DNA of 64,000 bases from an uncultured Bacilli bacterium (GCA_934096705.1 CAKOMR010000007.1:690-64689), one strand, 5' to 3'. Shown: positions 1 through 48,189, counted from the stretch's first letter. Notes: generated from the letters alone by a model not told the origin. Program-made: numbers and translations.

Positions 1-971
1 ATTCCCCCTGTGATTATTATATAACTAATTTCTTTTTTTGTTAAGAGGTTAATTTGCTTTTTAATAAGACCTGATAATTCTTTTAATCTTGAAATTATTA
101 CAGCACTTACATCATACTCACTAATTGTTCTATCATCACCATTAATATCTTTAATAACGACGTTTTCATTAGGCCTAGCCATATGAATATCACAAACACC
201 CAAATTTTCTTTTAAAAATAATGCATCAACTTTCGAAGTTTTAAAAACATATGCAATATCTTTTTCAATTGATGATGAAGCAATATCAATTATTTCCGAA
301 GAAGTAAGAATTCCTTTATTGATTATTGATACCGTCGTGTTACTATAACCTATATTTACCACAGCACCAACTTCTTTGGCCATTTCTGGGGTTTTAAATT
401 CATAATAATCCGCAAGTGGAGAAACACATATATCAAATGCTTTAATTCCTATTTTTTCTAAACATTTTATAATATTATCAGAGTTATTTTTAGGAACCAA
501 AACCGCTACTACATTAACAGTTAATTTATTTGCTATTACTTTAAGTGGATTTGCTAAAACCTCATCATCATTTATTATAAACTTCGTAGGTAAAATAGAG
601 ACAAGTTCTTTATTATCACCTACTTTTTTATAAACACTTTTTTGCATTGCTTTAATTATATCATCATTTGTTACTACTTTATCTTCGTTTGTTATTGTTA
701 CACTACCACTAGAAACAAAACACTCAAGATTATCACTAGGAACATTTACTAATACTTTTTTTATAGGTAAGCCAATAATTTTTTCGGCCTTTTCAAAAGT
801 TTCCTTCAATGCATAAAATGCACTATCAGGATTAACTATATATCCTTGCTTTATTCCTTGAGAAGGACTTTCAACACATGCTAAAATATTAACTTTATTT
901 TTTTGAATTTCTCCAACAACAAGTTTTATTAAACTAGAACCAATATCCAAACTAGCAATAATCTTTCTCAT
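1..971 (-). CDS. ftsA: Cell division protein FtsA, N-terminal ~323 codons; the 3' end runs off the window
   Basis: Minus-strand ORF from the ATG at 971..969 reads MRKIIASLDIGSSLIKLVVGEIQK... and is still open at base 1 (...EISYIIITGG). It has the actin-fold DIGSS phosphate motif and an ITGG motif typical of FtsA. It is absent from the ORF track because it is truncated. Confidence 0.85.
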   Translation of the reverse strand, partial: MRKIIASLDIGSSLIKLVVGEIQKNKVNILACVESPSQGIKQGYIVNPDSAFYALKETFEKAEKIIGLPIKKVLVNVPSDNLECFVSSGSVTITNEDKVVTNDDIIKAMQKSVYKKVGDNKELVSILPTKFIINDDEVLANPLKVIANKLTVNVVAVLVPKNNSDNIIKCLEKIGIKAFDICVSPLADYYEFKTPEMAKEVGAVVNIGYSNTTVSIINKGILTSSEIIDIASSSIEKDIAYVFKTSKVDALFLKENLGVCDIHMARPNENVVIKDINGDDRTISEYDVSAVIISRLKELSGLIKKQINLLTKKEISYIIITGG

Positions 972-1032
972 TTCTCCCACCTATTTTTTATAAATTAATT
1001 ATACCTTAGATAATTATTCTTTACAAGCATAT

Positions 1033-1060
1033 TTGACTTAAAAAAAATATATATTATAAT
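1033..1060 (+). promoter_or_regulatory. Putative sigma-A promoter (TTGACT-16 nt-TATAAT) for the serine hydrolase gene
   Basis: TTGACT at 1033..1038 and TATAAT at 1055..1060. An AAAGGA RBS lies just before the ATG at 1080. Confidence 0.5.
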
Positions 1061-1079
1061 AGAAAGACAAAGGAAAATT

Positions 1080-2468
1080 ATGAATAAAACAATAAAAAGT
1101 ATTGATGAATTTTTAAATAGACTAGTAATTAATCAAAATAAAACCCCTATAGCAGATTTTAAAAATATTTATTCAAAAAGGGATTATTTTATTTTACTAA
1201 GCGATGTTGCATTACTACTTGCAGATTTTCCAGATGAGAATATAGAGTTTTATAAGAAAATCATTTTCGAATCTAGCAAAATCAAAAGTACTTTGTTAAG
1301 TTTTGTTATGGGTCAAAAAATGACTCCGAGTATGGTAGTAAAATATGGTAGTAAAAAATTAAATGACACTTTATATATAGGCAAAAGTGATGAAATAAAT
1401 GGTATTGATGTTATTAAAGACACACTATATGACCTAGCATCAACTTCGAAAATGTTTACTGCAGTAGCAATTTTAAAACTTTGTGAATGTGGTCTTATTA
1501 ACCTTGAGGATGAAGTTACAAAATATGAGCCTAGGTTTACAGGTCTTAAAGGAATTACTATTTTAGATCTTCTTTCATTTAGAGTACCTGTTAAAACAAA
1601 AGAAAGAATTGATGCTCAAAAAAGTGTAGCAGATGCTCAAAATGTACTTTTCACACTAGAAAAAGATGAAAATCATGACCCCAATTTTTTATACACAGAT
1701 ATGGGTTGTCTTGCTTTAAAATACGTTGTTGAAAATGTATCACAAATGACTTTTGACGAATTTTTAAATGAAGAAATTTTTAATAAGTTTGGTATGACTC
1801 ACACATGTTTAAATCCTGCAAATACGTATGATATTGCAAGTGAAAACTATGGCATGAAAGTAAATCAAAATGGAATTATTACCTTAGATAGAAACATTTT
1901 AACTGGTACTGTTCATGATCCTAAAACAAATGCTCTTGGACATAAAATTGGTAATGCTCCGGGACATGCTGGATATTTTTCAAGTGCTGATGATATGTTT
2001 TCATTTGCTCAAAATTTAGCACAGGAAAACATAATTAATAGAGAAAGTCTAGATTTATTAACTACTCCACTTGTTGGAAGTAATAATGCATATTATTTTG
2101 GACTTTTGAACTATTATAAACAAAATAATAAAAATTATATTAGAGTGCAAGATTTTTTGTCTGGAAAATCTAGTTTGTCACCCGGTTTTTCCGGAACATG
2201 TTTATGTGTTGATACATTAAATAACATCTACGGGTTTATCGGAGCAAATAGACTTCATAATAGAATTTATCAATTACCACCAAGATACAGAAGTAATATA
2301 GTTCCTATTTACGATGCCAGAATGTATCAAGGAAAATATGTAAATTTTGATTATACAGTAAAATGCTGTGATGTTATGAAAAAAATAATGGAGCTTTCAT
2401 TAAAATATGCATTTTTAGAGTATTTATTTGAACCTAAAAAAGAAATTAAATTAGTTAAAAAAATATAA
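1080..2468 (+). CDS. Serine hydrolase of the beta-lactamase / PBP4*-like (class C-like) family
   Basis: SxxK motif ASTSKMF, a later YTDMG (YxN-like) and GHAGYF (HxG replacing KTG). The 462-aa length is typical of EstB/AmpC-like esterases. Confidence 0.8.
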   Translation: MNKTIKSIDEFLNRLVINQNKTPIADFKNIYSKRDYFILLSDVALLLADFPDENIEFYKKIIFESSKIKSTLLSFVMGQKMTPSMVVKYGSKKLNDTLYIGKSDEINGIDVIKDTLYDLASTSKMFTAVAILKLCECGLINLEDEVTKYEPRFTGLKGITILDLLSFRVPVKTKERIDAQKSVADAQNVLFTLEKDENHDPNFLYTDMGCLALKYVVENVSQMTFDEFLNEEIFNKFGMTHTCLNPANTYDIASENYGMKVNQNGIITLDRNILTGTVHDPKTNALGHKIGNAPGHAGYFSSADDMFSFAQNLAQENIINRESLDLLTTPLVGSNNAYYFGLLNYYKQNNKNYIRVQDFLSGKSSLSPGFSGTCLCVDTLNNIYGFIGANRLHNRIYQLPPRYRSNIVPIYDARMYQGKYVNFDYTVKCCDVMKKIMELSLKYAFLEYLFEPKKEIKLVKKI

Positions 2469-2473
2469 AAAAA

Positions 2474-2493
2474 ATAATGCTTTTACGCATTAT
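2474..2493. terminator. Bidirectional rho-independent terminator between convergent genes
   Basis: ATAATGC-ttttac-GCATTAT hairpin with an A-run on one side and a T-run on the other. It overlaps the rplT stop codon. Confidence 0.6.
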
Positions 2494-3059
2494 TTTTTTA
2501 ATTTTTCAATTAATTCAGGTTTCTTTAACGTACTAAATCCTTTAATACCTTTTTCTTTAGCTATAGCTTTTAAATCAGCTAAACTCATTGATTCTAAATC
2601 TTCTTTTATTTCTTCAACTTTAGCTTCAACTTTTTCAGCTGCTTTTTTTACAGTAGATTTTACTTCTTTAACTGTTTCTTTGATTTCTTCTTTAACCATT
2701 TCACCTAATAGAGCTTTTTTAGCAGTAACTACTAAAGCTGAAAAACTTTTAGGATCATCAATTGCAAGTTCAGAAAGCATTTTACGATTAATTTCAATAC
2801 CAGCTTTAGTTAAACCACTAATAAATTTAGAATAACTTATATCATTTTCTCTACAAGCAGCATTGATTCTTGTAATCCATAATTTTCTGAAATTTCTTTT
2901 GTTTTGTTTACGGTCTCTATAAGCATATGCTCCACTATGGAATAATTGTTCTTGAGCTGTTTTATATAATCTGTGTTTACTTCCAAAGTAACCTTTAGCT
3001 TCTTTTAAAACTTTTCTTCTTCTGTTTTTAGCGACATTTCCGCCTTTAACTCTTGCCAT
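2490..3059 (-). CDS. rplT: 50S ribosomal protein L20 with a ~70-aa C-terminal extension (K/E-rich linker plus Rho_N/SAP-like helix-hairpin)
   Basis: The N-terminal ~118 aa, [38 protein letters not shown]...[23 protein letters not shown], is canonical L20. The tail ...[33 protein letters not shown] resembles the Rho N-terminal domain. The gene is last in the infC-rpmI-rplT order. Confidence 0.95.
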
Positions 3060-3073
3060 TAATTACACCACCC

Positions 3074-3268
3074 TTATATTACTTTAGAAAGGCCTTGAGC
3101 CATTCCTTTTGCTAATACGCCTTTTCCTCTTCTTTGACGAACAGACTTAGCACTATCCTTTCCAGTTTTGTGATTTGAATTACCCTTTTTAAAAGTAATT
3201 GTACCATTTTTCTTTTTGTTTAACACTTTACTACTAGCTTTATGTGTTTTTTGTTTACATTTTCCCAT
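3074..3268 (-). CDS. rpmI: 50S ribosomal protein L35
   Basis: A 64-aa very basic protein, MGKCKQKTHKASSKVLNKKKNG...RQRRGKGVL, located between infC and rplT. Confidence 0.93.
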   Translation of the reverse strand: MGKCKQKTHKASSKVLNKKKNGTITFKKGNSNHKTGKDSAKSVRQRRGKGVLAKGMAQGLSKVI

Positions 3269-3283
3269 AAATAAACTTCCTTT

Positions 3284-3805
3284 CTATTTTTTTGGAGCGA
3301 GCATCATATAAGCTTGACGACCATCCAATTGAGGTTTTTGTTCAACATCAGCAACTTCTGAAAGAGCCTCTGCAAATCTATTTAGTACATCGTATCCAAG
3401 TTCTGGATGAGCCATTTGTCTTCCTTTAAAACGAATAAATGCTTTAATTTTATGACCTTTTTTTAAATAACTCTCTGCATTTCTTCGACGTGTTTCAAAA
3501 TCACCAACATCAATTGTAACAGATAAACGATATTCTTTAATTTCTTTGCTTGTTTCTCTTTGTTTCTTTTGTGCATCTTTTAATTTCTTTTGTTTTTCAT
3601 AACGGAATTTATTATAATCCATTATCTTAGTAACAGCAACACCATTACCTTGGTTCATTAAAACTAAATCTAGCCCTGCATAATTTGCAAGTGTAAGTGC
3701 ATCACTTAGTTTTTTAATGCCCATCTTTTCCCCATTTGGACCTATTACCATTACTTCTTCAGCTTTAATCTGATTATTAATTGGTAACTCTTCAATCTTT
3801 GCTAT
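3284..3805 (-). CDS. infC: Translation initiation factor IF-3, probably initiating at a non-canonical ATA codon
   Basis: The track ORF starts at an internal Met (3751). The frame stays open upstream: ATA GCA AAG ATT GAA GAG TTA CCA ATT AAT AAT CAG ATT AAA GCT GAA GAA GTA ATG. This gives the conserved IF-3 N-terminus (INxQIKAxEV.VIG.xGE). A GGGAGG RBS sits 9 nt before the ATA at 3805..3803. Confidence 0.85.
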   Translation of the reverse strand: MAKIEELPINNQIKAEEVMVIGPNGEKMGIKKLSDALTLANYAGLDLVLMNQGNGVAVTKIMDYNKFRYEKQKKLKDAQKKQRETSKEIKEYRLSVTIDVGDFETRRRNAESYLKKGHKIKAFIRFKGRQMAHPELGYDVLNRFAEALSEVADVEQKPQLDGRQAYMMLAPKK

Positions 3806-3945
3806 ATAGCTTCGCCTCCCTTAATATAATTAAAAAGGTGGATATAATTATCCACCTTAAAAAGCTAATATAATCATTAGGCCTTTTACCTATCAATATT
3901 CTTGATCAGGTGGATATTTATCTCTTTCCTTCGTTAACTACAAAT
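3806..3945 (-). promoter_or_regulatory. L20-leader-type transcription attenuator of the infC-rpmI-rplT operon
   Basis: The minus-strand RNA contains a terminator hairpin AAGGUGGAUA-auua-UAUCCACCUU (3858..3835) followed by UUUAAUU. An upstream copy of UAUCCACC (3916..3909) can pair with the 5' arm as an alternative (antiterminator-type) structure. The position matches the Firmicute L20 leader. Confidence 0.6.
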
Positions 3946-3974
3946 AGTTTACACTTAAATATATGTTTTGTCAA
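3946..3974 (-). promoter_or_regulatory. Putative sigma-A promoter of the infC operon (TTGACA-17 nt-TAAACT)
   Basis: On the minus strand, TTGACA at 3974..3969 and TAAACT at 3951..3946. Confidence 0.5.
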
Positions 3975-3982
3975 GTATATTA

Positions 3983-4843
3983 TTACCTTAAAAATCTTAA
4001 AGTTCTAGATTTTTCTGGCATATTTGAATAATAAATAGTGTTCATTAACTTTTCCTTGTCAAAAGGTACATAAACTTTTTCAGTATCAAAACCACCATTT
4101 ATTTTTTCTTTTAAAATAATATAACTTGCTAAATCTTTATCACTTTCTTGCCATCCCATACCGGCAGCTCTTATTGTATGTATTTTTGTATTTTCTAATT
4201 CATCTTCCATTTTAAAATGCACATGTCCTTGAAAAACATCATCGTATTCAGTAACACTTTTACCATGAAATAATGGTTCTTCATAAGAGTCTTTACAACC
4301 TTTACCTTCTAAAATACCAGTATGCTGTAAATAATAATCTAAATTCTTTTGATATTCAGGACTATTTGTATATAAAAATTGTTGTGCACCCTTACCAAAT
4401 CCATAATTTCTTTGATAAGTCCATGTACTTCTTAATGAATAATCCCATCTAACATCATTAATAAAATGACATAAAGCAACTTTTTTCTTTCCAATATCTA
4501 AATCAATTGACGCTTTACTACTATTTAAATAGTCTAAATAATCAGAAATTTTTGAAAGTGTCCAATATATAAGTTCTTTTCTTGATTCACTTATATAATT
4601 AAAAGGCCCAGTTCCAAGCATTACATAACATTCTGAGTTTCCAAGAACTTGAGAAACATTATTTTCCTGCATAAGTTTTAATACTTCCACCGGGCTTGGC
4701 CCATCTATAATGCTATCGCCTAAAGAATATATTTCTGTTATGCCTCTTCTTTTTATATCGTCCATAATACTTTCTAAAGGTTCATACATTCCATGAACAT
4801 CAGTAAAAAGTGCAATTTGCCTTCCTGTATAAATATTTTCCAT
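3983..4843 (-). CDS. Metallophosphoesterase (calcineurin-like phosphoesterase family)
   Basis: Motifs DVHG, GDSIIDGP, GNSE and GHVH in the canonical order. The start is probably MENIYTG (4843) rather than the upstream ATG at 4897. Confidence 0.75.
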   Translation of the reverse strand: MENIYTGRQIALFTDVHGMYEPLESIMDDIKRRGITEIYSLGDSIIDGPSPVEVLKLMQENNVSQVLGNSECYVMLGTGPFNYISESRKELIYWTLSKISDYLDYLNSSKASIDLDIGKKKVALCHFINDVRWDYSLRSTWTYQRNYGFGKGAQQFLYTNSPEYQKNLDYYLQHTGILEGKGCKDSYEEPLFHGKSVTEYDDVFQGHVHFKMEDELENTKIHTIRAAGMGWQESDKDLASYIILKEKINGGFDTEKVYVPFDKEKLMNTIYYSNMPEKSRTLRFLR

Positions 4844-4903
4844 TACTAGTACCCCTGATTTGCCCAGTATTATACCAAAAAAAGAAAAAATAGTCAAATT
4901 TAA

Positions 4904-5941
4904 CTATTTTTCTTTCTTCTCCTCTTTTAAAATAGATGACTTAAATCCATAATGAGTACGTATTTTATTTTCTAATTCATCTTTTAAAGCAGGATTGTTT
5001 TTTAAATATGTTTTAACATTTTCTTTTCCTTGGCCAATTTTTTCGCCATTATATGAATACCAAGCACCGCTTTTATCAATTATATCAATATCACTTGCTA
5101 AATCAATAATTTCGCCTTCTCTAGATATTCCTTCTCCATACATTATATCAACACATGCAGTTCTAAATGGTGGAGAAACTTTATTTTTTACAACTTTAAT
5201 ATTTACTTTATTACCAATTACAGTATCTCCACTTTTAATTTGTTCTCCTTTACGAATATCAAGTCGAACACTTGCGTAGAATTTTAATGCTCTTCCGCCT
5301 GGAGTTGTTTCTGGGTTACCAAACATAATACCAACTTTTTCTCTTAGTTGATTAATAAAAATACATGTTGTTTTACTTTTATTCATATTTCCAGATAACT
5401 TTCTTAGAGCTTGACTCATAAGTCTTGCCTGAAGGCCAACATGAGAGTCTCCCATTTCACCATCAATCTCTGCCTGAGGTACAAGTGCTGCAACTGAATC
5501 GATCACAATTAAATCTACAGCTTCACTTTTAACTAAAGCATCACAAATTTCTAATGCTTGCTCACCAGTATCAGGTTGACTTAATAATAAATTATTAATA
5601 TTAACTCCTAGATTTTTTGCATATACTGGGTCAAGAGCATGTTCAGCATCTATAAATGCTGCTCTTCCACCTTTTTTTTGAACCTCAGCTATAGCTTGCA
5701 ATGCAATTGTTGTTTTACCACTACTTTCAGGTCCAAATATTTCGATAATTCTTCCTACAGGAAAGCCACCAACACCTAATGCAATATCAAGAGAAAGTGA
5801 TCCCGAAGAAGTCGTATCAATTTCAATATGTTCTTCGTTACCAAGGCGCATAATTGCACCTTTTCCAAATTGTTTTTCTATATCAGCAAGAACTTGTTCT
5901 AGTACCTTATCTTTATCCTTTTCATCTTTTGTTATTTTCAT
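4904..5941 (-). CDS. recA: Recombinase RecA
   Basis: [29 protein letters not shown] (Walker A), [10 protein letters not shown] and IVIDSVAAL. 345 aa. Confidence 0.98.
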
Positions 5942-13030: not shown

Positions 13031-13672
13031 TTAACACTCATGAACATTGTCAATATTTAATGTAGCATTATAACTAACGCTTTCATTTACTTTTTGTTCT
13101 ATATCTGGAAAATAATTAAATGTTACAATAGCTTTATAAGAAATAGTTTTATTAACTCTTTTTGTAGTATATATTTCATGATTTATATTTTCTATATTTA
13201 GTTTAACTGGAACATCAAGTTTACCAGTATATTTAGTAATATCCATATTATCTATTATTGGAATAAAATCTTCATTATTCTCTTTTTTTAATACGCTTAG
13301 ACTAAGTTCTGGTCTAGGATAATTACTATAATCAAATACTGTTTCATTAGGCATAACTAAATAAACATTATAACAATATTTTGCTTTTGGTTTTGTAGTA
13401 TCAAGTATTACATCAATAGTTGTATCTCCACTTATTGAGTGGCCAAGATCCTTAATAAAATTATAATCTGTTGCATGCAAACTTATATCATGATCACTTT
13501 TTATTTGAAGTGTATCAACACCTTTTGATCTTACATCAACATTAAAATTTCCATAATAAAAGTCATTTGTTATAAAGTAAGCATAAGTGCTTACTACCAC
13601 AAGCATTAAAAACATAAAAATAAAAAGTATTAAATAAACTTGTGTTTTTAGTTTTTTCTTATCTTTCATCAT
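13031..13672 (-). CDS. Secreted/anchored protein of the YAYF family (camelysin/TasA-like SipW-type N-terminus); divergent paralogue
   Basis: The N-terminus KKKLKTQVYLILFIFMFLMLVVVSTYAYFITND resembles the ...GTFAYFSD SipW-type signal. It shares C[YT]Y[ND][VI]Y, the FNYFPDIEQ / FYNFPTIDQ block and a C-terminal Cys with 13807..14493. Confidence 0.55.
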   Translation of the reverse strand: MMKDKKKLKTQVYLILFIFMFLMLVVVSTYAYFITNDFYYGNFNVDVRSKGVDTLQIKSDHDISLHATDYNFIKDLGHSISGDTTIDVILDTTKPKAKYCYNVYLVMPNETVFDYSNYPRPELSLSVLKKENNEDFIPIIDNMDITKYTGKLDVPVKLNIENINHEIYTTKRVNKTISYKAIVTFNYFPDIEQKVNESVSYNATLNIDNVHEC

Positions 13673-13744
13673 ATGCCTCTATTCTATAAATAATATATCA
13701 AAAATGAATATAATTTTCAATATAATTTATTAATTTGACATACA

Positions 13745-13776
13745 CAAAAAAACGACCTAAAAGGCCGATTTTTATA
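13745..13776 (-). terminator. Rho-independent terminator after the Ala/Thr-rich YAYF-family gene
   Basis: Minus-strand AAAAAUCGGCC-UUUU-AGGUCGUUUUUUU. Confidence 0.65.
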
Positions 13777-13806
13777 TTATTAAATTGTTAACTTTTAATA
13801 TAACTA

Positions 13807-14493
13807 CTATATTGCAGTTGTTCCACAAACTACAGTGTTTTCTTTAACGTAGAACTTACCAGCAAATGATTTTTCAGCTAAAGCAGTTTGGTCAATTGTT
13901 GGGAAATTATAGAATTTAACGTTAGCAGTTAATGTTTGAGTAGCAGTATCATTACTTACTGCAATTGAACCACTAGCAACTTTAACTTCAGTTGTTGCAC
14001 TTGAGAAAACACTAAAATCTTTTTCTGAAGTTGCAGCATAAGTAGCTTCAACTGTAATTCCAGTACTTGGAGTTAAAGTATAAGTAAATTCTTTATTATC
14101 TGTTCCAGTAGTTACAGGTGTAGCAGCTGCCCCATATACAGCAGAACCTTCATCATATTGATAATAAATATCATATGTACAAGTAGTTGTAGTTGCTGCA
14201 TCAGTAGCAGTTAAACTAACAGATAACTCAGCCTTGTCACCACTATAAGTACCTACTGCTGTAGCAGCTCCAGTTCCTTTTAACATTTCTGCACCAGCAA
14301 CATTTAATTTAAGTGATGCTGAATTAGTTGTAAAAGTTGAAGATTTAGCTGCCTCAGTTGTAACATTTACGCCTGCTTTGTTATCTACTGTAGTAGTAAA
14401 TGAACCGAAGTATGCGAATGTTGCTCCAACAACTGCAACAAGTAATGTAGCTACTGCAATAACAGTTAACAATAAAGTATTTTTCTTTTCCAC
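13807..14493 (-). CDS. Ala/Thr/Ser/Gly-rich YAYF-family protein; candidate major structural subunit (TasA/camelysin-like signal). GTG start
   Basis: (GTG)EKKNTLLLTVIAVATLLVAVVGATFAYFGSFTTTVDNKAGVNV... It is low-complexity and beta-rich, with its own terminator. The gene is visibly more G+C-rich than its flanks because of Ala/Gly/Thr codons. Confidence 0.6.
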   Translation of the reverse strand: MEKKNTLLLTVIAVATLLVAVVGATFAYFGSFTTTVDNKAGVNVTTEAAKSSTFTTNSASLKLNVAGAEMLKGTGAATAVGTYSGDKAELSVSLTATDAATTTTCTYDIYYQYDEGSAVYGAAATPVTTGTDNKEFTYTLTPSTGITVEATYAATSEKDFSVFSSATTEVKVASGSIAVSNDTATQTLTANVKFYNFPTIDQTALAEKSFAGKFYVKENTVVCGTTAI

Positions 14494-14581
14494 TTCTTTC
14501 CTATCTCCTTTCTATTATAAATTTATCACAAATTATAATCATAAATCAAGTCCTTTAAGCAATTTTTTAAAATTATTATTT

Positions 14582-15670
14582 TTATTTGCTTAAAGTAACA
14601 GCCCCTGTTGAGGAATTTATATTAATATTAATTCCCGTTATATCAAGTATTGCAAGTGATTCTCCACCCGTAATAACGTAGGATGCTGGCACACTATATG
14701 AACTTGTAGGCGCCACTGTACTATACGAAGTTAATGAATTTGCTTTTATCAGTTTGTTTACAGTCGTATAGTAAGTATATGCACAATTTTGTAAAGGTTC
14801 ATTTGCACTGCATGTTGTTGCAGCCCTTGCTATAACAGATGTGGTAGCTCCACTTTGTAAATGAACCGTAGTTTCATAAATTTTATTATTATAAGTAATT
14901 CCTAAATTATAAGTTCCCACAGGAACATTAGAAAGTGTAAAAGCCCCACTTGAAGATGTGGCCTTAATTGTATTATTTTGAATTGATAGAGTTGCTCCAC
15001 TAACAGCAGTACCATCAACTTTAACAGTACCTTTTAAATTATATAAAGACTTTCCTACTAAAGGGACTTGTTCAATATTAACATCAAGTAAAACAGCTTT
15101 ACCATCTAAATCATCTGGAGTTTCCGGATTAAGCCATGCTTTTATGTAATAAGTTTTACTCGCACTACCCGCAGCAAAATTTGCAAAAGAAAGCAAATAA
15201 ATATCTTTATAATGGTCAGATGTATTTACACTCAAAAGTGGAAGTTCTGCTATTGAAACAGGCCCAGCTATTGGTGTAGTCGAAGATGCAGAATCAAATA
15301 TAGCTAGCCTAATAAATTCCATTGGAAGTAAGTCGTCCTTGGTAATTCCATATGAAGATAAAGAGTCTGTAGAATATCCTATATTTAAAGTATAAAAAAC
15401 TGTATATTTATTAGATTTAGATATTGCAACTTTAGCATAAGTTGTTTGATTTATACCATCTTCATCACTTAAAGGAGCTACCTGAGCATTTGTAATTTGT
15501 GTATATGATAAACTCGCATTTAAATTTCCTGTAGTAATATTTTGATTCATAGTGGAAACGGCTAATCTAGATAAATAAGAATATGATGTTCCTATAGAAA
15601 CGCAAGTTAAAGAAATAACCGCAAGAAAAACAACAACTAATGGACTAGCATTTCTCTTCATACCCTTCAC
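14582..15670 (-). CDS. Larger YAYF-like family member with a CarboxypepD_reg-like beta-sandwich domain
   Basis: N-terminus RNASPLVVVFLAVISLTCVSIGTSYSYLSRL. The central GTVKVDGTAVSGATLSIQNN...SSGAFTLSNVPVGTYNLGITYNNKIYETTV matches the carboxypeptidase-regulatory-like fold pattern. Confidence 0.55.
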   Translation of the reverse strand: MKGMKRNASPLVVVFLAVISLTCVSIGTSYSYLSRLAVSTMNQNITTGNLNASLSYTQITNAQVAPLSDEDGINQTTYAKVAISKSNKYTVFYTLNIGYSTDSLSSYGITKDDLLPMEFIRLAIFDSASSTTPIAGPVSIAELPLLSVNTSDHYKDIYLLSFANFAAGSASKTYYIKAWLNPETPDDLDGKAVLLDVNIEQVPLVGKSLYNLKGTVKVDGTAVSGATLSIQNNTIKATSSSGAFTLSNVPVGTYNLGITYNNKIYETTVHLQSGATTSVIARAATTCSANEPLQNCAYTYYTTVNKLIKANSLTSYSTVAPTSSYSVPASYVITGGESLAILDITGINININSSTGAVTLSK

Positions 15671-15700
15671 CTATTATAAATAATAACACATTTTTTATTT

Positions 15701-16066
15701 CTAAACAATATCTTTAAAATCTATTTTACTCTTTTCTAAATTTTCTAAATAAAATTTTTCTATACTTGTTAAATTATAATTTTTAAATAGTTTTATCTCA
15801 CTAGAAAATAAATCATCAAGTAAATTTTTTAACTTATCTTCTGAAGTTGATAAAAGTTTTAAAGTATAGAAGAAATCATCTTTTACTTTAATAAAAAAGT
15901 TATCTTCAGAAATATTTTTTGTTTTAGTAATATTTAAAATCTTTTGATATTTTTTTATCTGATAATCTATCTTTTGTTTTATCTTTTTGTTTGTAACATT
16001 AAAATATATATTCTTCAGCTTAAAAACCAACCTATTTGCACTTTCATACACATTTTTATATTCCAT
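15701..16066 (-). CDS. Hypothetical cytoplasmic helical protein (121 aa) heading the YAYF cluster
   Basis: ORF only: K/E/L-rich with no TM segment. It lies between rnj and the cluster on the same strand. Confidence 0.4.
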   Translation of the reverse strand: MEYKNVYESANRLVFKLKNIYFNVTNKKIKQKIDYQIKKYQKILNITKTKNISEDNFFIKVKDDFFYTLKLLSTSEDKLKNLLDDLFSSEIKLFKNYNLTSIEKFYLENLEKSKIDFKDIV

Positions 16067-16106
16067 AGAAAAACACCTATTTTTATTATAGGTGTATTTA
16101 GTTTAT

Positions 16107-17741
16107 TTATACTTCTTGAACAACTGCAATTATCATTGGTTTACACTCGGTTTCTTCATATAAATATGCTCCAAGTTCTTCTCTAATTTGTGTTCTAATT
16201 AAGTTATAATCAACATATTTTGGTGTAATATTGTTAGTTATAACCTTTTCACATATTTTTTTAATTTCTTCAATCATTTCCTTAGAATCTTTTACATAAA
16301 TAAAACCTCTTGTAACAATTTCTGGTCCTACTAATAAAACCTTATCTTTTTTAGAAACTGTAGCGCTTATTAAAACAATACCATTTTCTGCAAGAACTTC
16401 TCTATCTTTGATAACTAAATCGCCAATATCATCTGAACTTTTGCCGTCAATGAATATATCATCAACATTAATGTGTTCAAATTTATCATCAATAACTTTA
16501 TCTTTAATATTTATAACATCACCATTTTGTTTAAGTAGAATATTTTCAGGTTTTTTACCAAGACTTAAAGCAACATTTGCATTTCCAACCATATAACGAT
16601 AGTCACCCTTAACAGGAACATAATAAAGTGGATTTACAAGTTTTAGCATAAGCATAATATCTTCTTTTGAGGCATGCTGTAAAATAGAATACTTTTTAGG
16701 AATATCAATTACATTACAGCCATACTGTGCAAGTTCATTTTCCATTTTAACAAATAATTTTTCACTACTATCATATTTTGGTTCTGCAAAAATTATTGTA
16801 TCTGATGCAAGTAAATTAATATATTTATCATATCCAGTATAAATTTTATTAATATTAGCATACGGATTAGCTCTATCATCACTTATTAAAATAATTACAT
16901 TTTCATCTTTTAAATTTGATAAATCGCCAATAATATCAGGTTCAGTAACTAAATAATTATTTGTAATTGCATAATTTATTACATTTTGAAGTTTCTTACC
17001 CATTACTACAATTTTACGATGAGTTCCCGCAGCAGCATGAAAAATTTCTTCTATTGTATATAGATGATCTGGTAAAACAGAAAATATAATTCTTTTTTCA
17101 TTATGTTTAATTACATCTTTAAAAAAATCAATTAATTTATGTTTCGGAGATGTATGACCTGGATTTTCTGAAAAAATTGATTCGCTTAATAAACAAAGTA
17201 CACCTTGTTTACCAACATATGCAATTTTTCCTAAATCCATTTCATAGCTTCCCATCATTCCTGGATCAATTGTAAAATCACCTGTATAGCAAATACTTCC
17301 ATCACTTGTATATAAAACATACATTACAGCATCAGGAATGCTATGAGACATAGTTATAGGAAATATAGCACATTTACCAAAATTAATTTTTTTATGAGCT
17401 TTTATTTCAATGATATTATCTTCATTTACACCATCTAAAGTTAAGCAAAATTTTGTAAACTTTGTAGCATATATTTTTACATTAGGAATTTGGCTAATTA
17501 AATCGCACACACTTCCCATATTTTCTTGATGACCATGAGTTATAAAAACACCTTTGATCCTTTTTTGATTCTTTATTAAATATGAAAAATCAGGAATTAT
17601 ATAATCTATACCAAGTAAATTACCTGTAGCATATTTTAAACCACAATCGAAAACAAATATATCATCATCAACTTCAACAACATAACAGTTTTTCCCATTT
17701 TCGTCTAAACCGCCCAAGCCAAAAATTTTTATATTACACAT
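16107..17741 (-). CDS. rnj: Ribonuclease J
   Basis: IFGLGGLDENGKNCYVVE, metallo-beta-lactamase motif THGHQENMG and the beta-CASP/C-terminal domain. The start is placed at MCNIKIFGLGG. The track's 23-codon upstream extension has no counterpart in RNase J. Confidence 0.92.
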   Translation of the reverse strand: MCNIKIFGLGGLDENGKNCYVVEVDDDIFVFDCGLKYATGNLLGIDYIIPDFSYLIKNQKRIKGVFITHGHQENMGSVCDLISQIPNVKIYATKFTKFCLTLDGVNEDNIIEIKAHKKINFGKCAIFPITMSHSIPDAVMYVLYTSDGSICYTGDFTIDPGMMGSYEMDLGKIAYVGKQGVLCLLSESIFSENPGHTSPKHKLIDFFKDVIKHNEKRIIFSVLPDHLYTIEEIFHAAAGTHRKIVVMGKKLQNVINYAITNNYLVTEPDIIGDLSNLKDENVIILISDDRANPYANINKIYTGYDKYINLLASDTIIFAEPKYDSSEKLFVKMENELAQYGCNVIDIPKKYSILQHASKEDIMLMLKLVNPLYYVPVKGDYRYMVGNANVALSLGKKPENILLKQNGDVINIKDKVIDDKFEHINVDDIFIDGKSSDDIGDLVIKDREVLAENGIVLISATVSKKDKVLLVGPEIVTRGFIYVKDSKEMIEEIKKICEKVITNNITPKYVDYNLIRTQIREELGAYLYEETECKPMIIAVVQEV

Positions 17742-17814
17742 TATTATCACTCTTTTCTTTAAAGTTTTCCTTGGTAAGTTAATTTTATCAAAGAAGTGAT
17801 AATTTTGCAAGTTC

Positions 17815-37045: not shown

Positions 37046-38111
37046 TTTCCACCTCTATCTTTTTGATTTCAACTCTATTTATAGAATCAAATTTCTTTGT
37101 AATTTTTTCTGTTGTCGTAGAAAGTTCATCTACGGAATTATTAACCGCCTTTATATTCTTAGATAGTTTATCCCAACGATCTTTATATCTTGAAAATTCT
37201 ATACTTAATTTGTTTAATTCATCATGGATAACTTTAGCATACTTATCTCTTTCAATATTTTTAATAATCATTGATATTGTAGATAATGTAGATATTAATG
37301 TAGTTGGACCAGTTATCCATACCTTACTATTATAAGCATACGTAATAAGTTCAGGATGATACGCATTTATTTCTGCGAAAATTGCTTCTGCAGGTAAAAA
37401 CATAATTGCCTCATCGCTAGTTACCCCTGGAATAATATATTTTTCCTTAATATCATTAATATGTTTCTTCACGTCTTGAACAAATAATTTTTCATAGTAT
37501 AATCTTTCTTCTTTAGTCTTACTTTTATCAGTCATTTTTTGATAATTTTCAAGAGGAAATTTGCTATCAATAGAAATCGTTCCAAGCGGAGATGGAGCAA
37601 ATAAAAGTGCATCAACTATATATCCGTTTTCAAATTTATATTGAGATTTATAAATTCCAGTTGAAGAAGATCCAAAAGCATTATTTAAAATATATTCAAG
37701 ACTAACTTCACCGAAAGTCCCTCTTGTTTTTTTATCAGTTAACACACCTTGTAAAGAAATAATATCTGCTCCTAAATCATCAATTTTCTTTTGTGCTTCA
37801 TCAATTTTTGAAAGTCTTTCCAAAACAGAGTTAAATGTTTTATTACTTTTTTCAAAGTTTTTATCAAGTCTTTCATTAACCATATCATTTATTAATGTTA
37901 GTTTTCTTTCAACGCTTTCATTTAAAGAATCAAAATCTTCTCTTAAGATTTTAGAAAAATCATATTTAAAATCACCAATTGATTTTGTAATATTTGTATC
38001 AAATTTGCCTAACTTTTCAACTATATCACTATTATTATTTTTTCTAGATAATAAAATAATCAGTAAAATTATAGTGAAAATTAAAAGGCCTATTATTATG
38101 TAATCTATCAT
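37032..38111 (-). CDS. rmuC: DNA recombination protein RmuC
   Basis: An N-terminal TM, a long coiled coil, then the RmuC nuclease-like core (GTFGEVSLEYIL...VDALLF...ISIDSKFPLENY...MFLPAEAIF). Confidence 0.85.
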   Translation of the reverse strand: MIDYIIIGLLIFTIILLIILLSRKNNNSDIVEKLGKFDTNITKSIGDFKYDFSKILREDFDSLNESVERKLTLINDMVNERLDKNFEKSNKTFNSVLERLSKIDEAQKKIDDLGADIISLQGVLTDKKTRGTFGEVSLEYILNNAFGSSSTGIYKSQYKFENGYIVDALLFAPSPLGTISIDSKFPLENYQKMTDKSKTKEERLYYEKLFVQDVKKHINDIKEKYIIPGVTSDEAIMFLPAEAIFAEINAYHPELITYAYNSKVWITGPTTLISTLSTISMIIKNIERDKYAKVIHDELNKLSIEFSRYKDRWDKLSKNIKAVNNSVDELSTTTEKITKKFDSINRVEIKKIEVENDKD

Positions 38112-38512
38112 TTTTCAGCCTTTCTCATTATTTGCATTAATGTATTATCCATTTTAACAGGACTAATATAAATTTCTTTTCCATTTTTAAGTTTCAAAGC
38201 TATTCTTTTGTAAGAAGTTGAATAAAATGGATTTATATTGCTTACTATAAAGCATTTTTTTATTTGTTTATATGGAATAACTTTTTTTATAAAACCTGCT
38301 CTAATTGTAATACTTTTTTCATTAATTCTATAAACTCTAAAATAAAAAAATATTATTAAACCAAGAACAATTATTAAAAAAATTAATCCCAAAATAACAT
38401 ATAAAGTGCTAACATGTAAAGATAGTATTATAGAAATAAAAGCTAAACAAACAGTAAAATAAATTCCAAAAAAAACATAATAAAAATTGTCATAATAATT
38501 TTTTATTTTCAT
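38108..38512 (-). CDS. Small membrane protein with a bacterial PH-like domain
   Basis: Two N-terminal TM segments, then KSITIRAGFIKKVIPYKQIKK..., typical of bPH_2-type domains. Confidence 0.45.
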   Translation of the reverse strand: MKIKNYYDNFYYVFFGIYFTVCLAFISIILSLHVSTLYVILGLIFLIIVLGLIIFFYFRVYRINEKSITIRAGFIKKVIPYKQIKKCFIVSNINPFYSTSYKRIALKLKNGKEIYISPVKMDNTLMQIMRKAEK

Positions 38513-39198
38513 TTGTCATCCTTACATCTAATGTTTTCCACATAAAAGTTTCCTGAAAAAGTTTTTCCTTGAATACTTGCTTGTGATTCTGCTAAAATAT
38601 AAAATTTTAAATTAATATTCCAAGATTGAGTTGTACCAGTACCATTTAAATCTTTTATTATTGCATCTTTAACAACAATTTTTTTATAGCCAACATTTTC
38701 AGTTTTTGCGCTCCATGATGAATCATATGCAAAGTTTTTTTCAGTACTGTAATTATTAATGCCAACATTTGTTCCCTTAATTGTTAAAGTTAATTCTTTG
38801 GAACTAGGATTTGTTACTGGAGTTTCAGCATCTCCATAAATCTTGCTATCAACATCATACTCAAATACAATATCATAAGTACAACTATAAGTACTTGAAG
38901 CAGTACCTAAAGTCAAAGTTACATTTAAATTACTGTTACTGTCAGCTACAACATCACCTGCTGAGGCATTTATCATATTTGCAAGCGTAGCATGTAAATC
39001 AAGTGGTGCCGTCGTAGAAACAAACGAAGAAGAAATTCCTGAACCTGTATTTACATTTACAGATGCTTTATTATTTACTCTAGTACTAAACGAACCAAAA
39101 TATGCAAAAGAAGCACCCGCTACAATCGCAAGTAAAAAAATAATTGCAAAAATACTTGTTATATTTACCTTTTTAGTAATTTCATTATTTTCATTCAT
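38509..39198 (-). CDS. YAYF-family protein, close paralogue of 13807..14493
   Basis: ITSIFAIIFLLAIVAGASFAYFGSFSTRVNNKASVNVNTG... Shared blocks are CTYDIVFEYD..IYGDAETPVT and FSGNFYVENIRC, against CTYDIYYQYD..VYGAAATPVT and FAGKFYVKENTVVC in the paralogue. Confidence 0.6.
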   Translation of the reverse strand: MNENNEITKKVNITSIFAIIFLLAIVAGASFAYFGSFSTRVNNKASVNVNTGSGISSSFVSTTAPLDLHATLANMINASAGDVVADSNSNLNVTLTLGTASSTYSCTYDIVFEYDVDSKIYGDAETPVTNPSSKELTLTIKGTNVGINNYSTEKNFAYDSSWSAKTENVGYKKIVVKDAIIKDLNGTGTTQSWNINLKFYILAESQASIQGKTFSGNFYVENIRCKDDK

Positions 39199-42965: not shown

Positions 42966-43093
42966 CCATCAACTCTCCTATCTTTATTATGACCTAATTA
43001 TATCATAAAATTCAAAAAAACAATATATTTTTAAAAAATTTATATTAAAAAATGTCAACTTGTGTTATCATATTAAATATAAGGTGGATAAAA

Positions 43094-44647
43094 GTGAAGA
43101 TACTAATAAAGATTAAAAACGATAGATTATGTTTTATTAACAAAAAAAAACTTAATATAGAATATAAAAATATGCTTAATACTAATGTAATTAGTAACAA
43201 CGAACTTGTATTTAGTGATGAGTATATTTTGTTAAATCAAAAAATAGTTTGTACATTTTTAAATGAACTTATAAAAACTTATTCTATAACTACTTTATCT
43301 TTTCAAAATATTGAAGTTTTAAATATTATTCTTCCACTTATAAACAAATTCAAAAATATTAATTCTATTTATGTAGAATCTGAGGAAGTAATAAGTTATA
43401 AGCTTTGTGAAAAATTAAGAAAATTAAATGGTTTAAAATTTATAAGTTTTGAATACATTCCAGTATATATGTTTGAACTACTTGATAAGTATGGTATTAT
43501 TCCAGAATCAAGAAGTGAAATATTATTTACATCAAACTTTATGCAAACTAATAATCTAAAAACATATTCTCAATTATTTTATAAAAATAATATATATTTA
43601 CAGTTTCCATTATCAACTGAAGATATTCAAGATTTTAATGCATTTTGTGATATTAATAGACATCTTAAAGTAATTCATATAAATAAAATTAATAAAGTAA
43701 ATTTAGAACAAATAATCTATATTTTAAAAGAAAATAATCAAAAAAATATTAAAATAATTTTACATGGTGATGAACATGATGAAAATGTCATTGAATATTT
43801 AAGAAAAAACAATAAAATAATTAAGAAAAAATATAAAATTTCATTTAAATTAAAATATTCAGACAAATATATTGAAGACAACATTGTTAAAGAAACTAAC
43901 AATGGAATATTAAGAATGTGTGGTCTTTTAATACTACTTATTGTTGCATTTTCTTTTATCTATGTTTTTTATGATAACTATACTTCAATGATGAAAGTAA
44001 GTAAAATTCAAAAAGAAGTTACTAAATATATTGAAGAAAAAGAAGTCAAAGAAGAAATTAAAACCGTAAAAACATTAAATGGTATAGAAATTAAGAATAA
44101 TTATATTTACTCTCTTACAGAGATTAATCCTGATGTTGTTGGTTGGTTAAAAGTAAATAATACAAATATAGATTATGCTATTACACAAACTCTTGATAAT
44201 GATTATTATTTAAATTATAACTTATATAAGAAAAAAGATAATAATGGTTGGCTATTTATGGACTATGAAAATAATATTACTCACACTGATGATAACATAA
44301 TAATTTATGGTCACAATAGATATTTAAATGGTGTAATGTTTGGCACACTTAATAAAACCCTTTATAAAGATTGGTATACAAATAAAGAAAATCAAATCAT
44401 AAGACTCGACACTTTATATAATTCTTATAAATATCAAGTATTTTCTATTTATATAGTACCTACTACAAATGATTACTTAACAGTTAATTTTGATGATGCT
44501 AAGTCAAAGATGGAATTTTTAGATAAAATAAAAAATCGTAGTATTTACGATTTTAATATCACACTTGATGAAAATAGTAAAATACTTACACTTTCTACTT
44601 GTCAAAGTGAAACAACTAGACTTGTTCTTCATGCAGTACTTGTTTAA
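43094..44647 (+). CDS. Class-B-like sortase with a ~275-aa N-terminal cytoplasmic extension
   Basis: C-terminal domain: INPDVVGWLKVNNTNIDYAITQ, IIIYGHN, LTLSTCQ (catalytic Cys) and TRLVLHA (Arg). A single TM LLILLIVAFSFIYVFY is preceded by a K-rich segment. The GTG start at 43094 is preceded by AAGGTGG; the track's ATG at 43052 is in frame upstream. Confidence 0.8.
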   Translation: MKILIKIKNDRLCFINKKKLNIEYKNMLNTNVISNNELVFSDEYILLNQKIVCTFLNELIKTYSITTLSFQNIEVLNIILPLINKFKNINSIYVESEEVISYKLCEKLRKLNGLKFISFEYIPVYMFELLDKYGIIPESRSEILFTSNFMQTNNLKTYSQLFYKNNIYLQFPLSTEDIQDFNAFCDINRHLKVIHINKINKVNLEQIIYILKENNQKNIKIILHGDEHDENVIEYLRKNNKIIKKKYKISFKLKYSDKYIEDNIVKETNNGILRMCGLLILLIVAFSFIYVFYDNYTSMMKVSKIQKEVTKYIEEKEVKEEIKTVKTLNGIEIKNNYIYSLTEINPDVVGWLKVNNTNIDYAITQTLDNDYYLNYNLYKKKDNNGWLFMDYENNITHTDDNIIIYGHNRYLNGVMFGTLNKTLYKDWYTNKENQIIRLDTLYNSYKYQVFSIYIVPTTNDYLTVNFDDAKSKMEFLDKIKNRSIYDFNITLDENSKILTLSTCQSETTRLVLHAVLV

Positions 44648-46872: not shown

Positions 46873-48189
46873 TTACATATTTTTTGCAAGATTTTTAAAT
46901 TCATCCCCACGTAATTCAAATTTTGCATATTGATCCCAGCTTGCAGATGCAGGCGAAAGAAGTACCACTCCACTTTCTATACTGTCTTCTTTAACGCATT
47001 TCATAGCTTCTTTTAAAGAATAGCACTTTGTGCAAGGAATATTTACGCTTTGTGCATAATCATAAACTTCATCAGTAGTTTCTCCGATAGCATATATTTT
47101 TTTGACATTTTTTATTGCATTATCAAGTTCATGAAAATTTTGTTTTCTTTGCATACCACCCAATAAAAGGTATGTATTTTCATCAAAAGCATTGAGTGCT
47201 GTAATTGTACTTGTTGGATTTGTAGCTTTAGAATCATTATAGAATTTTAAATTTCCTTTTTGACAAACAAATTCAATTCTATGTTCAACGCCTTTAAATT
47301 CTTTAAAGAATTTTATAACAACATCTTTATCTATTTTAAATTCCTTTAAAACTAGTAATGCAGCCATAATATTTTCATAATTATGTTTTCCTTTAACTAA
47401 TATATCTTTAGTATCAATTATTTTTTCACCTTTAATAAAAATTGCATTATCTAGTAAATATGCATCTTTACCATTAAAATATTCTTTAGTACTATTAATA
47501 TCTTTTGTAAGAAGCATACTATCAGCATTTCCTGCATTAATTATTGCAAGATCATTTTTTGTATGATGGTTAAATATATTATGTTTTACCTTTTTATAAT
47601 TTTCATATGTTCCATGATAATCTAAATGTGTTTGACATAAATTTGTAAGAACACTTATATCAGTTTTAAAGTCATGAAAGTTTAATAACTGATGATCAGA
47701 TATTTCAAGTAATAGTACATCCCCATCCTTTATCAAAGGAATTACTTCACTTAAAGGGTATCCAATATTTCCACCTAAAACGACACTAATATTTTCTCTT
47801 TTTAATAATTCATATATCATTGTTGTTGTTGTCGTTTTACCATTTGAACCAGTAACTCCAATAATTTTTATATTTTTAGGAAGAAAATGATATGCTACTT
47901 CCATTTCATTATAAATTGGAATATTTAGTTTTTCAGCTTCAATTAATAGTTCATGAAATGGCATAATTCCAGGGTTTTTAATTACCATATCAAAACTATC
48001 ATCAAAAATTTCTAATGGATTCTCACTTTTTACAAATTTAACACCTAAACTTTCAAGCTCTTTAACTTTTTCTTCATCTTGGTCATTTTTATCTGTTATA
48101 AGGATTTCATTATTTTTACATAATAGTTTAGCTACATTATAGCCACTTTTAGCCATTCCCAATATAAATATTTTTTTATTTTTAAACAT
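46873..48189 (-). CDS. murD: UDP-N-acetylmuramoylalanine--D-glutamate ligase
   Basis: KIFILGMAKSGYNVAKLL and GVTGSNGKTTTTTM, with Mur ligase domain order. Confidence 0.93.
   Translation of the reverse strand: MFKNKKIFILGMAKSGYNVAKLLCKNNEILITDKNDQDEEKVKELESLGVKFVKSENPLEIFDDSFDMVIKNPGIMPFHELLIEAEKLNIPIYNEMEVAYHFLPKNIKIIGVTGSNGKTTTTTMIYELLKRENISVVLGGNIGYPLSEVIPLIKDGDVLLLEISDHQLLNFHDFKTDISVLTNLCQTHLDYHGTYENYKKVKHNIFNHHTKNDLAIINAGNADSMLLTKDINSTKEYFNGKDAYLLDNAIFIKGEKIIDTKDILVKGKHNYENIMAALLVLKEFKIDKDVVIKFFKEFKGVEHRIEFVCQKGNLKFYNDSKATNPTSTITALNAFDENTYLLLGGMQRKQNFHELDNAIKNVKKIYAIGETTDEVYDYAQSVNIPCTKCYSLKEAMKCVKEDSIESGVVLLSPASASWDQYAKFELRGDEFKNLAKNM

Follow-up and report, generated by a model that had tools for sequence, protein, structure and literature searches.

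What kind of cell-surface structure, if any, is encoded by a small cluster of genes for secreted proteins in an uncultured human gut bacterium? The cluster occupies positions 13,031–16,066 of a 64,000-nucleotide stretch of DNA from an uncultured Bacilli bacterium (GCA_934096705.1 CAKOMR010000007.1:690-64689); this whole stretch is called the window here. It consists of four minus-strand genes, whose coordinates and open reading frames (ORFs) are exactly as an earlier note on this DNA had described them. Three of the encoded proteins begin with similar sequences, for which the earlier note had proposed SipW-type signals and a system of the tasA/sipW kind. These three are very probably secreted surface proteins with a SipW-type signal. 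With moderate confidence, the cluster is interpreted as a SipW-dependent, wall-associated surface fibre or coat of a gut Bacilli lineage, its polymerisation being a prediction. The genes with the N-terminal motif are as follows (lengths in amino acids, aa; the arrow marks a predicted cut).

14582–15670, minus strand: 362-aa ORF, predicted wall-binding partner; SipW-type N-terminus, predicted cleavage after S31
13807–14493, minus strand: 228-aa ORF, candidate major subunit; predicted signal peptide aa 1–27 (nucleotides 14413–14493), predicted cut TFA↓YF
13031–13672, minus strand: 213-aa ORF, candidate minor subunit; SipW-type N-terminus STYA↓YF; the last residue is Cys
38509–39198, minus strand: 229-aa ORF, solitary paralogue of the major subunit; ASFA↓YFGSF, both Cys kept

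In the 362-, 228- and 213-aa proteins, a Lys-rich stretch is followed by a hydrophobic helix and then by TSYS-YL, ATFA-YF and STYA-YF, respectively. The N-terminal strings quoted for them in the earlier note (VVSTYAYFITND, VVGATFAYFGSF and SIGTSYSYLSRL) are all present. This arrangement was searched for in the first 80 aa of the window ORFs of at least 60 aa, as at least 10 hydrophobic residues followed by [GASTV][TS][FYW][AS][YFW][FLMI]. It occurs in four of the 87 ORFs, compared with a mean of 0.02 and a maximum of 2 in 500 shuffles. The motif of the four window proteins is not due to chance. The fourth match is the 229-aa protein. All four proteins show the residue pattern of the SipW class, with a basic n-region, a hydrophobic core, a small residue at position -1 and aromatic or hydrophobic residues at P1'/P2'. 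The predicted cut sites are TFA↓YF (228 aa), TYA↓YF (213 aa), SYS↓YL (362 aa) and SFA↓YF (229 aa). After cleavage, the cluster proteins are predicted to start with YFGSFTTTVDNK (Y28 of the 228-aa protein), YFITNDFYYGNFNVDVR and YLSR.

The cleavage register of the 228-aa protein (T25-F26-A27↓Y28-F29) is that of TasA (T25-W26-A27↓A28-F29). Both are cut between residues 27 and 28, and the pattern common to the two is T25-[FW]26-A27↓x28-F29. The aromatic P2' residue is reported to make the TasA site a poor substrate of LepB and a substrate of SipW (PMC10269814). The SipW signal of BsaA also comprises residues 1–27 (PMC11580942). The signal model TIGR04088 has a membership cut-off of 19 bits and is matched by TasA, the positive control, with 38 bits. 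Among 80 diverse family members from related loci, 33 match this model (best E 3.1e-5). A further model, NF042931 ('SAG1386/EF1546 family surface-associated protein'), matches the signal-peptide region of 19 of the 80 members and weakly the N-terminus of the window's 213-aa protein; this streptococcal and enterococcal family may use the same type of signal.

Relatives of the 228-aa protein are encoded in 411 loci among the GTDB species genomes. From these, 79 distinct loci were kept (referred to by L numbers), and all their ORFs were clustered together with those of the window (1.27 Mb). In 12 of the 79 loci, the same operon encodes a 250–320 aa protein with SxSMxP and KGDxN motifs. This protein matches the archaeal-type signal peptidase I model TIGR02228 (E 1.5e-30, 106 bits, cut-off 51.9) and the Bacillus SipW model NF046067 (96 bits). 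For a single-copy gene, loci of 20 kb and an assumed genome size of ~1.7 Mb, about one of the 79 loci is expected to contain it by chance. The major-type proteins of these sipW loci match the profile of the 228-aa family (A1), in most cases over nearly the full length, with E values of 1e-15 to 1e-22. In the typical gene order, the major subunit comes first, in some loci with a small paralogue after it; then follow a large repeat-rich protein that shares the N-terminal motif, and sipW. A member of the 362-aa family is also present in several of these loci.

Further examples of the sipW operon are L086 and L090–L095. The archaeal-type peptidase also lies in the operon of full-length homologues in two loci that were retrieved via the peptidase itself, and two prevalent SipW candidates (P0190 and P0202) are located in major-adhesin-sipW operons of other lineages. 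A profile search for SipW homologues yields more than 3988 matches. No P-type signal peptidase is detected by motif scan in the 1.27 Mb of related loci and window. At the level of the family, the major-type proteins are linked to SipW, and the register together with the operon-borne peptidase of relatives supports the proposed tasA/sipW-like kind of system.

The protein encoded between the major subunit and sipW is a component that is absent from the window. It has 436–1198 aa, the same N-terminal motif and long acidic repeats (L057, L076, L068, L066, L081 and L086) and is likely an adhesin. In L057 (10754–12958), the acidic repeats match the Ser-Asp repeat regions of models (SdrC/ClfA) of microbial surface components recognizing adhesive matrix molecules (MSCRAMMs). 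The repeats in L086 (8598–9908) look, by eye, like the DxDxDG type.

The 228-aa protein belongs to a large family. Its 1228 database relatives include none with a functional name or a Pfam domain. An exhaustive profile search results in 1875 clusters (50% identity), of which 820 have E ≤ 1e-10. Major-type genes form tandem arrays in several relatives, and in many clusters, in other lineages, proteins of 400–1159 aa begin with a major-type module. The AlphaFold2 (AF2) model of the 228-aa protein has a predicted local distance difference test score (pLDDT) of 82.8 and consists of a β-sandwich (aa 50–228). Residues 21–49 have a pLDDT below 50. The low-confidence extension, aa 28–49, holds the conserved segment VNVTT. 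Monomer models of BsaA are likewise disordered in the N-terminal segment before donor-strand exchange (PMC11580942). In 30 homologues, C105 and C223 are invariant and probably form a disulfide; the invariant residues of the mature part are M70, C105, Y120, E135, N196, Q202 and C223. Foldseek finds nothing at E ≤ 1e-3 for this model, and its best 50 matches contain weak hits to TNF, CBM35 and viral jelly-roll folds. The A1 profile has no match among PDB sequences.

Proteins that are ~40% identical elsewhere have an almost constant 29-residue N-terminus, MEKKNTLLLTVIAVATLLVAVVGATFAYF. Over 57 genes, most N-terminal positions are encoded by 3–5 synonymous codons for a single amino acid. In gene pairs, up to 20 of the 32 N-terminal codons differ synonymously and 4–5 residues change, whereas 24–30 of the next 32 residues change. 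Synonymous divergence with a constant peptide reflects purifying selection on the N-terminal peptide, not recent recombination.

The body of the major subunit is hypervariable between close relatives. In L007, L082 and L083, the patatin, epimerase, ZIP, RNase J, helix-turn-helix and SSB proteins are 94–99% identical to those of the window, and the 213- and 362-aa proteins are 88–89% identical. The major subunit (encoded at 11167–11862 in L082) is 61% identical, with the first 32 residues unchanged. The more distant L006 (flanks 72–87%) has a major subunit that is 76% identical to that of the window and is thus a closer allele than those of L007, L082 and L083. This suggests allele exchange or diversifying selection of the body. 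By analogy with pilins and flagellins, such a pattern may mark the major subunit as a dominant antigen exposed at the surface or as a phage receptor, with exchange of alleles. The earlier note had overlooked that the signal peptide is invariant and the major subunit hypervariable, and had also missed the LysM domain of the 362-aa protein. The corresponding regions of the 362-aa gene are given below.

14834–15037, minus strand: CarboxypepD_reg domain (aa 212–279)
14681–14818, minus strand: LysM-like β-α-α-β unit (approximately aa 285–330)

As seen in the alignment of its family (A3) and in its AF2 model (pLDDT 77.9, low-confidence N-terminus to residue 40), the 362-aa protein comprises, in this order, an Ig-like N-domain, a CarboxypepD_reg/transthyretin-like domain, the LysM unit and a small C-terminal β domain. 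The CarboxypepD_reg-like domain had already been noticed. It has an E value of 5.2e-6 in the window protein (27 bits, below the gathering score of 32.3) and is clearly recognised in 20 of the 25 family members (best E 3.7e-14). LysM (PF01476) is found in 8 of the 25 members (best E 1.9e-8), and the family profile matches solved LysM proteins with E values of 2.9e-6 to 5.6e-5. The window protein itself has no match to the Pfam LysM model at E ≤ 1; its AF2 model shows a strand-helix-helix-strand arrangement at residues 285–327. Foldseek relates the model to SdrD, UafA, the pilus backbone PI-2b of group B Streptococcus (GBS), the basal pilin EbpB and BcpA (E 2.6e-7 to 1e-4, probability 0.8–1.0).

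Members of the 362-aa family occur in 33 sources, mostly encoded just upstream of a major-type gene. The combination of LysM, CarboxypepD_reg and Ig domains suggests a wall anchor. The 362-aa protein is accordingly predicted to be the wall-binding partner of the major subunit, with a role like that of TapA. The TapA model TIGR04087 matches no member of the 362-aa family; 2 of 80 major-type proteins match it at E 0.15. Database homologues of the 362-aa protein begin at the Met codon at 15661, three codons 3' of the listed GTG. Judged from these homologues, the protein probably has 359 aa and starts there.

The three cluster proteins had been described as paralogues. This is correct for the 213- and 228-aa proteins, which are remote paralogues. 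Their direct comparison by BLASTP is not significant (E 0.3–1.4). They are connected through an intermediate, a major-type protein of L038 that matches the 213-aa protein at E 1.5e-9, and both fall into one single-linkage family of 187 ORFs. The sequence blocks and the C-terminal Cys that had been reported as common to the two are real (CYNVY/CTYDIY and FNYFPDIEQ/FYNFPTIDQ). The 362-aa protein shares just ~35 N-terminal residues with them; since the likeness is confined to this region, it does not count as a full paralogue. Thus, as read from the sequences, the cluster consists of two remote paralogues and a differently built protein with LysM and Ig-like domains. A further copy, missed before, is the 229-aa protein, which is 39% identical to the 228-aa protein (E 3e-34). 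Its gene may represent another allele of the major subunit, either alternative or silent. The stop of this gene overlaps the start of a gene for a 134-aa membrane protein with two transmembrane segments (38108–38512, minus strand); next comes a 359-aa gene, RmuC-like as judged by eye. The 213-aa gene is present in close relatives and absent from L002.

Several results weigh against a SipW-dependent system of the TasA kind. The three N-termini of the window do not match TIGR04088 even at E ≤ 10. Their sole related match is that of the major subunit to TIGR04090 (E 0.035, 13.8 bits, cut-off 60). In the window, no signal peptidase of either type is found by motif scan, by tblastn or with a hidden Markov model (HMM) of the lineage's SipW proteins, in line with the earlier statement that no SipW-like enzyme is present in these 64 kb. 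Contigs carrying the end genes of the window extend it by ~10 kb on each side, and no signal peptidase is among the genes called there; Tad-like pilus, cell-division and sporulation genes are found instead. Furthermore, the constancy of all 29 N-terminal residues goes beyond the usual need of a cleaved signal peptide and could mean that the helix is retained. For the mature domains, the camelysin HMM PF12389, which had been proposed as a check, and NF046066 match neither the window proteins (E ≤ 1) nor the family members scanned. The alignment of A1 or A3 with TasA by hhalign has a probability of <2%. The TasA fold (5OF1 / 8AUR) is not among the best 50 Foldseek matches of the 228-aa model or of the 362-aa model, so that this second proposed check also fails to connect the proteins to TasA. 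Finally, an isopeptide lock as in BsaA is rejected, as 30 homologues contain no invariant Lys for the Asn-Glu-Lys triad.

Homology with TasA beyond the signal peptide was therefore discarded: Pfam, NCBIfam, profile searches of PDB sequences, Foldseek and hhalign give no significant relation, as had been claimed before. The alignment of A3 with TasA runs in register through 'TGNL / SGTL' and 'IqNNGsL / fENNGSL'. The BsaA/TasA superfamily is extremely divergent in sequence (PMC11580942), and because of this divergence a distant common ancestry with TasA and BsaA is still conceivable. The SipW reading of the N-termini is supported indirectly, by the TasA register, by the TIGR04088 matches of relatives and by the peptidase in the operons of relatives. 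At this level the claim of SipW-type N-termini holds; the window's own three proteins do not reach TIGR04088.

If the cluster encodes a fibre or coat, its three secreted proteins would be exported by Sec and then cut by a SipW-type peptidase encoded elsewhere in the genome. The cut would follow the small residue of [ST][FY][AS]↓Y[FL], that is A27 in the major subunit and S31 or A31 in the partners. The 228-aa protein, the gene of which has its own ribosome-binding site and terminator, would be the abundant, presumably highly expressed structural subunit. That it forms a polymer is a prediction for which we see the chances as evenly balanced. The mature major subunit would begin with YFGSF... 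and expose a flexible extension of ~22 residues. The VNVTT segment in this extension may enter the β-sandwich of the next subunit, by analogy with the donor-strand exchange of TasA and BsaA. TasA fibres form by this mechanism (PMC9674648). The LysM domain of the 362-aa protein would tie the structure to the peptidoglycan in a TapA-like role, and the 213-aa paralogue would be a minor subunit that acts as tip or terminator. The exposed body of the major subunit would be under diversifying selection or allele exchange, as a surface antigen or phage receptor.

The tapA-sipW-tasA biofilm operon of B. subtilis, in which TapA is the anchor and nucleator of the TasA fibres and SipW the dedicated peptidase, resembles this arrangement in the T-aromatic-A↓x-F register and, as regards relatives, in the archaeal-type signal peptidase of the operon. 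In both systems a major subunit, built as a β-sandwich with a flexible N-terminal segment, is accompanied by an accessory protein that has a signal of the same type and is predicted to contact the wall. The differences are considerable. There is no detectable homology to TasA or TapA in sequence or fold, and sipW lies outside the cluster and the window. The predicted anchor is made of LysM, Ig-like and CarboxypepD_reg domains, the signal is near-invariant, and the major subunit is hypervariable with two invariant Cys residues.

A second comparison is with the bsa operon of C. perfringens (sipW-bsaA-bsaB-bsaC, PMC11580942). Here, too, a SipW-type signal of 27 residues is followed by a disordered segment, in the window protein a candidate donor strand, each locus holds several divergent paralogues, and the family is very divergent. 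The weak TIGR04090 match of the major N-terminus is a further likeness, although its score is far under the cut-off. In contrast to the bsa operon, the Asn-Glu-Lys triad and a von Willebrand A protein are missing, and type IV pilin genes are just loosely nearby in some relatives.

The cluster proteins might also be non-polymerising surface proteins that are exported by the SipW-type route and sit on the wall as monomers or small oligomers, the 362-aa protein via LysM, serving as adhesins or as a protective coat and forming no fibre. We consider this possible and rather unlikely. SipW-type signals occur on non-fibre proteins too. The 362-aa model resembles MSCRAMM adhesins (SdrD and UafA) as much as pilins, and the long proteins headed by a major-type module in other lineages have an adhesin-like architecture. 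Such a coat is less easily reconciled with the layout of major subunit, paralogous minor subunit and anchor and with the terminator after the major gene, which are typical of fibre systems, and with a conserved N-terminal extension that the monomer model leaves disordered. Around fibres of this kind, operons commonly hold multiple BsaA/TasA paralogues (PMC11580942).

Sortase-assembled pili and MSCRAMMs (BcpA, the GBS PI-2b backbone, EbpB and SdrD) share with the cluster the Ig-like/CnaB-type arrays of the 362-aa model and a CarboxypepD_reg/SpaA-type domain; a gene with a sortase domain is also present in the window. Unlike these systems, the cluster has no LPXTG, pilin motif or C-terminal anchor, wall attachment is predicted to be non-covalent via LysM, and the signal is of the SipW type. 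The C-termini (...VVCGTTAI, ...NIDNVHEC and ...GAVTLSK) contain no LPXTG motif with hydrophobic segment and basic tail.

In another explanation, the N-terminal helix is not cleaved and serves as a membrane anchor or as a pilin-like core. The proteins would then make up a coat tethered to the membrane or a helical-core filament, and the SipW of relatives would serve other substrates. The extreme constancy of the N-terminus keeps this possibility in the discussion: the 29 residues, including the hydrophobic core, are under extreme purifying selection, which is more reminiscent of type IV pilins than of an ordinary signal peptide. The hydrophobic segment L7–A24 is long enough to span a membrane, and the window proteins fail TIGR04088. 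The hydrophobic region of TasA, however, is equally long. The register of the motif, the 33 relatives that match TIGR04088 and the SipW genes in operons all point to cleavage. Additionally, no prepilin site of the G↓FTLxE or Flp type is present, and canonical type IV pilins are encoded separately in related loci. Retention of the helix is judged improbable.

The same constancy also underlies the bolder proposal that MEKKNTLLLTVIAVATLLVAVVGATFAYF, unchanged across hundreds of divergent proteins, is a new sorting or assembly signal. It would be retained structurally or read by a dedicated secretion and polymerisation machinery, with the SipW-like enzyme acting like a prepilin peptidase. We regard this as a doubtful idea. 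If it were true, abundant uncultured gut Bacilli would possess a Gram-positive surface filament of a class not recognised before, the subunits of which vary antigenically.

Type IV pilins and flagellins resemble the major subunit in combining an invariant N-terminus with an exposed domain that varies strongly between strains. Unlike type IV pilins, the cluster has no prepilin-peptidase site, assembly ATPase or platform genes, and the body is all-β, without the α-β fold of pilins. Neither the type IV prepilin site (Gly followed by F/M-T-L-x-E) nor the Flp site G↓xxxxEY is found in any of the four proteins. A type IV pilin reading was therefore rejected; canonical pilins with KGFTLIELL are separate genes in 13 related loci.

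Very unlikely, finally, is a spore-associated coat or appendage made during sporulation: SpoIIIAH and GerM-type genes lie in the window, spoIIGA and a sigma-factor gene lie just outside it on a same-species contig, SipW and TasA of B. subtilis are linked to spores (TasA was first described in this way) and a jelly-roll subunit with N-terminal extension and conserved Cys presumably recalls, if loosely, the endospore appendage (Ena) subunits of Bacillus, but the cluster is placed among housekeeping genes (RNase J and SSB) and does not belong to a sporulation operon, its strong variation between strains suggests that growing cells expose it to hosts or phages, no Ena or coat structure is among the best 50 Foldseek matches listed for the 228-aa model, and the proteins carry Sec-type signals.

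Taking the cluster as a SipW-dependent surface fibre or coat, the general principle of SipW-dependent surface and matrix proteins is already known, and the protein family is not described in databases. The mature domains of the family have no Pfam or NCBIfam model, and the signal model TIGR04088 alone touches part of it. The family appears to be the major SipW-dependent surface component of these bacteria, a widespread, uncultured and genome-reduced lineage of the human and animal gut with an essentially unknown cell surface. Should fibres form, gut commensals and a new fold family would be added to the range of the TasA/BsaA principle, a dedicated archaeal-type peptidase with donor-strand fibres. 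The hypervariability of the major subunit between strains points to selection by phages or host immunoglobulin A and makes this protein a natural marker of strains. With the invariant signal peptide, this part of the secretome can readily be searched for, and the peptide is a possible target for capturing or labelling the organisms.

The remaining elements of the cluster concern its first gene and its transcription.

15701–16066, minus strand: 121-aa ORF, Lys/Asn-rich, without signal peptide or transmembrane segment; first gene of the cluster
16073–16095, no strand assigned: bidirectional terminator-like hairpin between RNase J and the cluster
13753–13767, minus strand: terminator-like G+C hairpin followed by a T-run, directly 3' of the major-subunit gene
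13720–13692, minus strand: promoter-like sequence, a putative site of the 213-aa gene's own

The cluster lies downstream of the RNase J gene (16107–17810) on the minus strand and is bracketed by terminator-like hairpins, with a strong one 3' of the 228-aa gene. The hairpin at 16073–16095 suggests that the cluster is transcribed separately from RNase J. The GTG start of the 228-aa gene is preceded by the ribosome-binding site AAAGGAG. The G+C content of the window is ~26%. An ORF of 71 aa (14378–14593, plus strand) lies antisense to the conserved sequence that encodes the N-terminus. As a 'family' of 41 ORFs it is seen in 31 loci, solely because the sense sequence is conserved, and it was dismissed as an ORF-calling artefact.

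The small protein encoded by the first gene has 121 aa and no hydrophobic N-terminus; it is the small cytoplasmic protein of the earlier note. Where positions were read in relatives (L001, L002, L082 and L083), its homologues are encoded directly upstream of the gene of the 362-aa family; this family has 9 sources in all. The 121-aa protein is 70–75% identical where the flanking genes are 94–99% identical, which corresponds to fast divergence, and neither Pfam nor NCBIfam has a model that matches it. In relatives, defence- or toxin-type genes are inserted within the cluster, and the locus seems to be a hotspot of such insertions. In L002 (7539–9430), genes for an AAA_15 ATPase and RloB lie between the 362-aa and major genes, and a 641-aa ATPase-like gene follows the major gene. 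In L082 and L083 (12663–14203), HipA_C and HIRAN genes follow the 213-aa gene.

The 79 loci are derived from gut metagenome-assembled genomes labelled 'Mycoplasma sp. CAG:472', 'uncultured Tenericutes' and 'Bacilli bacterium', with a few labelled 'Muribaculaceae'. The lineage presumably belongs to the order RF39 of the Bacilli. Most RF39 species are predicted to have peptidoglycan (PMC10868615). Literature searches gave no result, either for RF39 together with SipW or for the peptide motif. A Mur ligase (46873–48189, minus strand) and an LtaS-like sulfatase (50534–52480, minus strand) are encoded in the window. A 531-aa protein (43052–44647, plus strand) ends in a sortase domain of 165 residues (E 1.4e-13), and its long N-terminal part has no Pfam match. 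The Mur ligase, the sulfatase and the sortase-domain protein indicate that the organism is walled, in accordance with the prediction for RF39.

Genes matching SpoIIIAH and GerM (Germane) are located at 58609–59103 and 59446–60345 (both plus strand), with a GerE-type gene between them in L085. Immediately outside the window, the same-species contig has spoIIGA, ftsA, ftsZ and a gene for a sigma factor. This walled, 'Mycoplasma'-labelled organism probably forms spores. L084, the contig that carries the first gene of the window, has a Tad/Flp-type pilus set at 817–5274, ~5–9 kb outside window position 1. It comprises a TadE-like gene, ATPases of the ParA/CpaE-like and T2SSE types and two T2SSF genes. 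This set is a separate filament system of the same organism and adjoins the sigma-factor gene, spoIIGA, ftsZ and ftsA. At 56400–58451 (minus strand), the window encodes an ATP-binding cassette exporter with a Peptidase_C39 domain. Its homologue in L085 is followed by genes of 132, 49 and 65 aa (15958–16681), and this arrangement looks like a locus for the export of a bacteriocin or peptide.

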